Shown here: in pieces, positions 44,163-63,287 of the stretch
Numbering within the stretch: the first letter of the stretch is position 1
Layout of the letters: each line of letters begins with the position of its first letter
NCBI GenBank assembly: GCA_964428495.1
Contig: CAYRXY010000002.1
Location: 19,784 to 83,783, forward strand
Source: an uncultured archaeon
Lineage (GTDB): Archaea; Aenigmatarchaeota; Aenigmatarchaeia; GW2011-AR5; JAHLMP01
DNA length: 64,000 nt
Direction: 5' to 3'
Translations under genes and position numbers: made by a program
Notes under the pieces: model-generated
Databases searched by the model: none
Told to the model about the DNA's origin: nothing
Seen by the model: only the letters and a program-made list of their open reading frames with translations

Positions 44163-45350
44163 ATGAGTAAAAAGCTTAAAGCAAAGATATTTTTGAAAGA
44201 TGACAAGATCCTTGCTGTAGACGAGGCTAGCATTCAAGTATTTTATAGGAGCCACTATGGAATTTTAAAGGGAAGTTTAGAGCTGGATCCAGTTGAAGCT
44301 CTTTACCTAGTGAATATGAGAAAGATACCGTGTTTAGAGGATGGAAAACTGCTCACATTCAAAGATCTTCTCTACAAATTTTCAAATAGAGAAAAACTAT
44401 TTGTAAGGTATAATGTATTTAGGGATTGGAGAGAACGTGGATTATATATTCAACTTCCGAATCAGATAGAGTTGAAACACTTCGGCGATTCTCCTGTTGT
44501 AAATTATCCATCAAAGGAGATAAACTTTCCAATTTTAAAAACAAAATTATTTTTTGACCCAGATAATATGATATCGTTTATATTCGATCTACCTGCTGCC
44601 CGTAAATTATTTGAAGATTATTGGATAGGTCAACTTGGCGTATATAAGCAACACACAAGAGATAAGATACTTAAATTAGATATTTTTGAGACATTATTTC
44701 TAGCTAGGCTTGGATATGAAGTTAATAACATGAAGACAAAAAGAAAGATAGGTTTTGATTCCCTAATCAAATTGGCAAAAAAGAAGGATCCATCGATTAC
44801 AGCACTTTACGATGTCTATGAGGATTGGAGAATGAGAGGTTATGTCGTGAAGACTGGTTTTAAGTTTGGGTCTCACTTCAGAATTTATTTTCCCGGTGCT
44901 TCGCCGATAAAATCTAAGTCCAAGTGGATACACTCAAAACATGTTCTTCAGGTATTCCCGAAGGATAAGAAACTAAAAATGAATGAATGGGCAAGATCGG
45001 TTAGAGTTGCTCATGGAGTTCGGAAGACATTCATAATGGCAATACCTAAAATGAGTGAATCTGATTATGAAAAAATCAAGCCCGATTTTGTTGCGTATCA
45101 TAGAAAAAGAGATGATGTAGAAAAGCCGAATAAAGATAATCCAAGATTCATAATGGTTGCAATTTCTGAAGATGATGAAATTGATGGAAAAAAATCAGCA
45201 TCATTTTTAAGAATTGCTAATGAACTCGGGTTAAGCCTAATAATCGCAATTTCTGATCGAGAAACTGCTGTAACCTATTATATGGCAAAGCTGATAAACC
45301 TACCGGGCTCTAGAAATAAATACTATGAAATTGAATGGTTTCAACCTTAG
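44163..45350 (+). CDS. endA: tRNA-splicing endonuclease, long three-unit form
   Basis: Catalytic unit YDVYEDWRMRGYVVKTGFKFGSHFRIYFPG..HSKHVLQV..AHGVRKTF (Tyr/His/Lys). Extra N-terminal unit with YNVFRDWRERGLYI and an extra C-terminal unit. Confidence 0.9.
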   Translation: MSKKLKAKIFLKDDKILAVDEASIQVFYRSHYGILKGSLELDPVEALYLVNMRKIPCLEDGKLLTFKDLLYKFSNREKLFVRYNVFRDWRERGLYIQLPNQIELKHFGDSPVVNYPSKEINFPILKTKLFFDPDNMISFIFDLPAARKLFEDYWIGQLGVYKQHTRDKILKLDIFETLFLARLGYEVNNMKTKRKIGFDSLIKLAKKKDPSITALYDVYEDWRMRGYVVKTGFKFGSHFRIYFPGASPIKSKSKWIHSKHVLQVFPKDKKLKMNEWARSVRVAHGVRKTFIMAIPKMSESDYEKIKPDFVAYHRKRDDVEKPNKDNPRFIMVAISEDDEIDGKKSASFLRIANELGLSLIIAISDRETAVTYYMAKLINLPGSRNKYYEIEWFQP

Positions 45351-61517: not shown

Positions 61518-61640
61518 GGGCCCGTAGCTCAGTCTGGACAACACAGCATTTCGATACAACCTTTTTGAAAGGTTGTGTTGGGATAATAGAGCGCCGGCCT
61601 TTTAAGCCGAGTGTCGCGGGTTCGAATCCCGTCGGGCCCA
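61518..61640 (+). tRNA. tRNA-Lys (anticodon UUU) interrupted by a roughly 49-nt intron in the D-loop
   Basis: Acceptor GGGCCCG/CGGGCCC. D-stem GCTC (61527-30)/GAGC (61589-92) separated by 58 nt. Anticodon loop CTTTTAA, T-arm GCGGG TTCGAAT CCCGT. Intron about 61538-61586. Confidence 0.8.
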
Positions 61641-63173: not shown

Positions 63174-63287
63174 GGTTGTAGGAGGGAATATCCAGGGTTT
63201 ATTACTTACCTTTTTAGGTAAGTGTAGTACCGAAGTTCCTTCGGGATACTTTGGTACTTAGGGCTTTGGATCCTAGTTCCTACAGCC
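63174..63287 (+). ncRNA. candidate structured ncRNA, 114 nt, family unknown
   Basis: Four nested/adjacent helices read directly: 10-bp closing stem, 8-bp stem, 8-bp hairpin with UUUU loop, about 13-bp hairpin with UUCG tetraloop. 44% GC versus 26% in the flank. G-U pairs valid only on the + strand. Confidence 0.5.

Follow-up and report, generated by a model that had tools for sequence, protein, structure and literature searches.

An open reading frame at positions 44163..45350 of the window (by which we mean the whole stretch of DNA analysed here, 64,000 nucleotides in length) raises the question of which kind of tRNA-splicing endonuclease (EndA) it encodes. The host is a member of Aenigmatarchaeota, known from a MAG of 0.65 Mb (G000). 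The three-unit epsilon2 enzyme is the textbook fourth architecture of archaeal EndA. In the literature it is known from ARMAN-1, ARMAN-2 and Mancarchaeum (Micrarchaeota) only, on which account its origin is called elusive, and in that literature on epsilon2 we found no mention of Aenigmarchaeota in this connection. An earlier note, made from the letters of the window, had described the 395-residue product as a three-unit EndA resembling the ARMAN-2 enzyme, and had adduced a non-canonical intron in tRNA-Lys at 61518 in support. We therefore ask here what the protein is, which RNAs it may cut, and how it relates to the other EndA of its host.

Architecture, fold and functional residues of the endonuclease

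The peptide motifs quoted in the earlier note were all found in the 395-residue translation of the reading frame. The limits of the units were taken from the study of the ARMAN-2 enzyme (PMC3488258) and transferred through a HMMER alignment to ARMAN-2; the functional residues, as defined for ARMAN-2 in that study and in its 2025 successor (PMC12397907), were mapped through the HMMER alignment as well. The resulting features are as follows.

44163..45350, plus strand: gene assigned to the epsilon-type tRNA-splicing endonuclease; uninterrupted ORF of 395 amino acids plus stop codon, with a full-length match to 4fz2
44190..44453, plus strand: alphaN unit, residues 10-97, a copy of the N-terminal subdomain of EndA that is not catalytic (ARMAN-2 residues 2-97, 34/88 identical; tRNA_int_endo_N at 10-70)
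44454..44540, plus strand: linker 1, residues 98-126 (ARMAN-2 linker 98-125)
44541..45044, plus strand: alpha unit, residues 127-294, the complete catalytic unit (ARMAN-2 126-288, 87/163 identical; tRNA_int_endo at 215-296)
44637..44669, plus strand: ARMAN-specific loop (ASL), residues 159-169, GVYKQHTRDKI (aligned with ARMAN-2 158-168, GTYKVSEHGNL)
44886..45026, plus strand: active-site stretch with Y242 (44886-44888), H257 (44931-44933), S258, R281 and K288 (45024-45026) (ARMAN-2 Y236/H251/R275/K282)
45045..45086, plus strand: linker 2, residues 295-308 (ARMAN-2 289-300)
45087..45347, plus strand: betaC unit, residues 309-395, structural (ARMAN-2 301-387, 39/87 identical; weak PF01974 at about 308-372; beta-subunit NCBIfam at 328-380)

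Parsing of the domains with Pfam, as the earlier note had proposed, recovered both tRNA_int_endo (residues 215-296, E 3.6e-30) and tRNA_int_endo_N (residues 10-70, E 2.8e-13). When the whole genome was searched in six frames with PF01974 (tRNA_int_endo), a second, weak stretch appeared in the same frame at about 308-372, which corresponds to the C-terminal unit, and NCBIfam models of beta subunits matched residues 328-380. When all PDB chains were searched with phmmer, the best match was 4fz2_A (E 3.9e-103), in which residues 10-395 of the query were aligned in one stretch with residues 8-387 of the chain; the 4fz2 sequence is also present in 9w2k. 4FZ2 is the crystal structure of the epsilon2 EndA of ARMAN-2 (PMC3488258), and the HMMER alignment gave 45.6% identity to this protein over 375 columns. 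The proposed likeness to the ARMAN-2 enzyme is thus borne out over the full length of the chain.

An AlphaFold2 model, built on an alignment of 43 homologues, reached a pLDDT of 92.1 and a pTM of 0.87. In a Foldseek comparison with the PDB, it superposed on 4fz2_A and 9w2k_B at TM 0.90/0.92 (rmsd 2.2-2.4 Å, about 396 columns), and the runner-up was the fused alpha-beta enzyme of M. kandleri (5x89, TM 0.55). The structure prediction and the alignment of the units therefore agree with the three units claimed for this protein.

The residues with assigned functions in the two enzymes correspond as follows.

Catalytic triad: Y236/H251/K282 in ARMAN-2, Y242/H257/K288 here
Bulge clamp: R275/W384 in ARMAN-2, R281/W392 here (W392 codon 45336-45338)
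ASL pair: Y160/K161 in ARMAN-2, Y161/K162 here
Basic pocket: K228/R234 in ARMAN-2, K234/R240 here
L10 loop of betaC: D357/E359 in ARMAN-2, D365/E367 here (45255-45263)

Among the 12 functionally assigned residues of ARMAN-2, all are identical here except K241, which is dispensable in the ARMAN-2 enzyme (PMC3488258, PMC12397907). The catalytic triad, which had been recognised from its motif context, is intact (Y242 in FRIYFPG, H257 in HSKHV, K288 in GVRKTF), and it lies in the middle alpha unit only, as the alphaN and betaC stretches showed no such context. The functional positions are invariant in the 43 homologues, save D365, conserved in 90% or more of them. Across the host family (nine genomes), none of the functional residues is replaced; one genome (G007) has an alignment gap at R281.

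Alternatively, the protein might be a plain alpha'2 homodimeric EndA with two units, as found in Euryarchaeota, and merely long. Two observations speak for this: 395 residues is close to the length of alpha'2 proteins, and the NCBIfam models of alpha'2 (PRK09300 variants) have the best E-values among the NCBIfam matches. However, these equivalog models (NF006795, NF006796 and NF006794) score 161, 117 and 84 bits, which is below their curated cut-offs of 501, 518 and 383, respectively. The alpha'2 structures 2gjw, 1rlv and 3p1y reach TM values of only about 0.50 to the model, against 0.90 for 4fz2, and the last 87 residues form a beta-like unit with an L10 loop and the Trp of the clamp. The fold comparison refutes the alpha'2 assignment, which we regard as exceedingly improbable. 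With high confidence, we conclude that the gene encodes an epsilon-type EndA, in which two linkers connect a non-catalytic alphaN unit, a complete catalytic alpha unit and a betaC unit of structural role within one chain of 395 amino acids.

On the basis of homology to the ARMAN-2 enzyme, for which the roles of the residues and of the ASL Tyr and Lys and the position of cleavage have been described (PMC3488258, PMC12397907), the dimerisation, the activity and the substrate range of the protein can be sketched. Two chains would form an epsilon2 homodimer, in which the acidic L10 loop (D365/E367) of each betaC unit enters the basic pocket (K234/R240) of the alpha unit of its partner; these interface residues are conserved between the two proteins. 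The two active sites of the dimer, one Tyr/His/Lys site per alpha unit, would thereby be spaced to match the pair of bulges in a bulge-helix-bulge (BHB) motif. Y242 would act as the general base, H257 as the general acid and K288 as the lysine that stabilises the transition state, while the first base of the bulge would be sandwiched by R281 and W392. In ARMAN-2, alanine in place of the residues equivalent to Y242, H257, K288 or K162 abolishes cleavage. Y161 and K162 of the inserted ASL would grip the backbone at the bulge; in ARMAN-2, it is this grip that makes the cutting of relaxed BHB motifs possible. Each bulge would be cut after its second nucleotide to leave 2',3'-cyclic phosphate and 5'-OH ends, and these would then be joined by the RtcB ligase, whose gene is present in the host genome (C2:6104-7411, E 8e-176). 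The likely substrates are about 18 interrupted tRNA genes, including that of tRNA-Lys(UUU) with its D-loop intron, and other BHB-flanked RNAs.

The gene lies between a gene of Dph6-type diphthamide synthase on one side and SBDS-Rrp4 on the other, and two small genes on the opposite strand are found upstream of it. Conservation of the order Dph6 - epsilon - SBDS - Rrp4 is confined to the host family, and the gene order is uninformative on the function of the endonuclease because it is kept within the family only. A scan for sigma-70 promoters is not meaningful, as the host is an archaeon.

Candidate substrates in the host genome

Two loci of the window are likely substrates of a splicing endonuclease, and are given here as context and not as parts of the enzyme.

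61518..61640, plus strand: tRNA-Lys(UUU) gene, with a 49-nt intron (61538-61586) in the D-loop after G19
63190..63276, plus strand: 87-nt RNA within a perfect hBHBh' motif (BHB scan: H 4/4, h at least 10, h' at least 10), likely a stand-alone endonuclease substrate

The unspliced tRNA-Lys gene at 61518 was missed by both ARAGORN and Rfam, and deletion of 61538-61586 gave a clean 74-nt tRNA-Lys(UUU) in ARAGORN. The intron is thus real and stands at a non-canonical position. What does not stand in full is the argument which the earlier note had drawn from it. The BHB motif of this pre-tRNA is close to strict (H = GUCU/GGAU, bulges GG|A and AA|U, h' of 8 bp), with the D-stem as its outer helix. 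Orthologous D-arm introns of tRNA-Lys are found in relatives with the alpha-type EndA only (42 nt in G014 and 24 nt in G012), and the gene is uninterrupted in one epsilon-bearing member of the host family. Since such introns also occur where the alpha-type enzyme is the only EndA, and since the host genome itself encodes that enzyme, the intron is no proof that the epsilon enzyme is needed. As, in addition, the motif is nearly strict and the alpha-only relatives have no more intact tRNA genes than the carriers of epsilon, the argument is weaker than had been stated. The idea that carriers of the epsilon gene have more disrupted tRNA genes was likewise unsupported, as full-length RF00005 matches average about 23 in the epsilon family and about 17 in the alpha-only families.

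We took a census of the tRNA genes of the host genome with a heuristic script that scores the cloverleaf together with the BHB motif. This script replaced ARAGORN, which was too permissive for choosing splice sites, whether run with the option -i or on candidate spliced sequences. The census gave about 24 uninterrupted and about 18 interrupted tRNA genes, eight of the latter at non-canonical sites. About 10 introns are at 37/38, several of which do not have a closed 5' bulge; tRNA-Gly(UCC) is an example of the latter, and the canonical intron of tRNA-Met(CAU) is strict. Introns in the D-loop were found in seven genes (Arg CCU, Arg UCU, Arg UCG, Lys UUU, Val UAC, Val CAC and Gln UUG), and tRNA-Arg(CCU) has two introns, the second of which is canonical. 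In the gene of tRNA-Ala(CGC) (C3:21841-21978), an intron of 67 nt interrupts the T-loop after linear position 58; its motif is hBH-like (H 4, h 5, h' 1), and it lies at about the T-loop site of pre-tRNA-Cys, the test substrate of the ARMAN-2 enzyme.

Some further features of these genes may be recorded. The D-loop introns of tRNA-Arg (CCU, UCU and UCG; C1:8436-8595, C1:116652-116755 and C4:19130-19246) and of tRNA-Lys(UUU) in the window are at the same site after G19 and have nearly identical BHB motifs (H = GYCU, bulges GG|A and AA|A/U); their intron bodies, of 30-49 nt, are unrelated. tRNA-Val(CAC) (C1:44717-44835; Rfam score 28.9 bits) has a D-loop insert of about 47 nt, and the intronless 77-nt tRNA called by ARAGORN at C1:44760-44836 is a mis-call of this gene. 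A tRNA-like gene of 146 nt (C3:18378-18523) has perfect acceptor and T arms, and deletion of one or two BHB-bounded inserts gave no solution for its insert or inserts and anticodon. At C1:81371-81476, the best splice gives a tRNA-Pro with the anticodon AGG and an alternative splice gives GGG; an A at the wobble position, as in the AGG candidate, has been reported for ARMAN-4 and ARMAN-5.

Distribution of the epsilon type and its coexistence with an alpha-type enzyme

The closest homologues of the protein (54-59% identical) come from records named Aenigmatarchaeota, and proteins of Micrarchaeota are about 47% identical. At least 581 GTDB species genomes encode a relative, and the best 80 of these are all full-length and come from Aenigmatarchaeota and Micrarchaeota, apart from a few evidently mislabelled bins. 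In a library of representatives at 50% identity, 36 clusters matched at E <= 1e-30. Hundreds of epsilon homologues thus stand unremarked in the databases, in both phyla. In Aenigmatarchaeota, a second DPANN phylum beside Micrarchaeota, the architecture is widespread: among 251 sampled genomes of this phylum, 79 have the epsilon gene (37 together with an alpha-type gene and 42 with epsilon alone), and 165 have EndA genes and no epsilon.

In phylogeny, the epsilon proteins group by phylum. In our tree, ARMAN-2 is placed within a clade of 46 rows from Micrarchaeota, and the protein from the window falls in a clade of six rows from its family (96/91) within a clade of 16 rows from Aenigmatarchaeota (100/99). 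Because of this position, a recent transfer from Micrarchaeota is unsupported.

Several representatives (P0137, P0139, P0140, P0142 and others) are 330-350 amino acids long and align with residues 34-395 at E 1e-40 to 1e-55; these may represent shortened forms of the three-unit chain. Two records with discordant titles, L084 (Kaiserbacteria) and L095 (Marsarchaeota), have epsilon genes of the Micrarchaeota type, the former identical to the gene of L083 and the latter nearly identical to that of ARMAN-2, and these are probably misbinned contigs. In the sample of 251 genomes of Aenigmatarchaeota, a further 26 have two PF01974 matches and no epsilon gene, which suggests another two-gene arrangement.

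The host genome also encodes, outside the window, an alpha-type EndA of 187 amino acids (contig C3, L001 1474..2037, minus strand). Its closest likeness is to EndA of M. kandleri, M. jannaschii and N. equitans, and its L3 loop is basic, like that of Nanoarchaeum. At the column of the canonical catalytic Lys it has Ala (NIRA[RK]ML), with mostly R or K at the next position, and this Ala is shared by every one of the 38 genomes in the order and by 119 of the 120 nearest homologues. The alpha-type enzyme is presumably active, since most of those genomes have no other EndA. We rejected the possibility that it is a paralogue that decayed after the gain of epsilon, as the Ala is present in all 38 genomes, including 30 without epsilon. 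In the host family, the epsilon gene is present in all nine genomes and the alpha-type gene in eight of them, and in the other families of the order, the alpha-type gene is present in 30 of 32 genomes and epsilon in none of the 32. Within the family, the alpha-type proteins are 64-73% identical and the epsilon proteins 51-59%. The alpha-type gene keeps its place beside a tRNA cluster across the order.

How the two genes share their work can be read in more than one way, and their co-occurrence might in principle be a binning artefact, with the contig of the alpha-type gene (C3) or that of the epsilon gene (C2) derived from another organism, as the two genes sit on separate contigs in the host genome. 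This is very improbable, given an estimated contamination of 0.02% in the host genome, the recurrence of the pair in eight of nine family genomes and 37 of 251 genomes of the phylum, and the conserved position of the alpha-type gene by the tRNA cluster; moreover, G121 has both genes on one contig (C1 122136-122414 and 380169-381329). A reading of more weight, to which we give somewhat less than an even chance, is that the epsilon enzyme is real but redundant or accessory, and that the conserved alpha-type enzyme does the bulk of tRNA splicing. Epsilon would then serve as a backup, or for a subset of substrates such as introns of the hBH type or in the T-loop and non-tRNA BHB RNAs. The occurrence of both genes in nearly the whole family, the better conservation of the alpha-type protein, and its being the sole EndA in 30 of the 32 genomes of the sister families, where intact tRNA genes are nevertheless few and D-arm introns occur, all point in this direction, and the alpha-type enzyme could process some or all introns of the host genome. 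Against this, epsilon is the only EndA in 42 genomes of the phylum and so suffices alone there, purifying selection evidently acts on its functional residues, and the canonical catalytic Lys is replaced by Ala in the alpha-type enzyme.

A division of labour between the epsilon2 and alpha-type enzymes over classes of BHB substrates would be an undescribed two-enzyme arrangement for RNA splicing in Archaea, and we propose it only tentatively. The classes could be canonical as against D-loop or T-loop tRNA introns, stems for rRNA processing, and stand-alone excisable RNAs. On this reading, which we hold possible but less likely than not, about half of the epsilon-carrying Aenigmatarchaeota, the present host among them, would stably maintain two endonucleases, either of which suffices alone: the epsilon2 enzyme with its ASL, and the alpha-type enzyme with its basic L3 loop and its unusual Ala at the Lys column.

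As for the gene in the window, taken as an epsilon-type EndA, it is an expected housekeeping enzyme with no new mechanism. Its main interest lies in the distribution of the family and in its frequent coexistence with an alpha-type enzyme, which provide comparative material on the origin of the three-unit enzyme and on whether the type of endonuclease co-evolves with the type of intron.

Comparison with known splicing endonucleases

The alpha'2 EndA of Euryarchaeota (Archaeoglobus fulgidus, 2GJW/1RLV) is likewise a long-chain homodimer with a catalytic and a structural repeat and the same Tyr/His/Lys chemistry, although for the present protein the dimer is predicted by analogy. Unlike the present protein, the alpha'2 enzymes have two units, an Arg/Arg clamp and no ASL, and cleave the strict BHB motif only; their structures and equivalog models stand correspondingly far from it (TM about 0.50; cut-offs unmet). 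With the (alpha-beta)2 EndA of Crenarchaea and Nanoarchaeum (Aeropyrum pernix, 3P1Z; N. equitans, 3IEY), it shares a catalytic alpha unit beside a structural beta-like unit, the Trp/Arg clamp, and a lysine-bearing loop near the active site, which gives broad specificity. In contrast to the present protein, those enzymes are made of two polypeptides and do not have an alphaN unit, their CSL/L3 loop is not homologous to the ASL, and their TM values to the model are 0.35-0.37 when normalised by the query.

The closest known group consists of the epsilon2 EndA of ARMAN-2 (Candidatus Micrarchaeum acidiphilum, 4FZ2/9W2K) and its homologues from ARMAN-1 and Mancarchaeum Mia14. The ARMAN-2 enzyme has the same alphaN-alpha-betaC chain of about 390 amino acids (45.6% identity), an identical triad, the same Arg/Trp bulge clamp, the same Tyr-Lys pair in the ASL and the same L10 and pocket residues, and the predicted fold agrees with it at TM 0.90. 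The hosts are also alike, each being a DPANN archaeon with a small genome in which many tRNA genes are interrupted, one of them by an hBH-like intron in the T-loop. The two enzymes differ in that the ASL beyond G-x-Y-K is mostly different (3/11 identical) and that K241 of the second loop is Ser here. The present host belongs to Aenigmatarchaeota and not to Micrarchaeota, with its protein in a separate clade of the tree, and its genome also has an alpha-type EndA, whereas a single annotated splicing endonuclease was described for ARMAN-2 in the 2011 paper.
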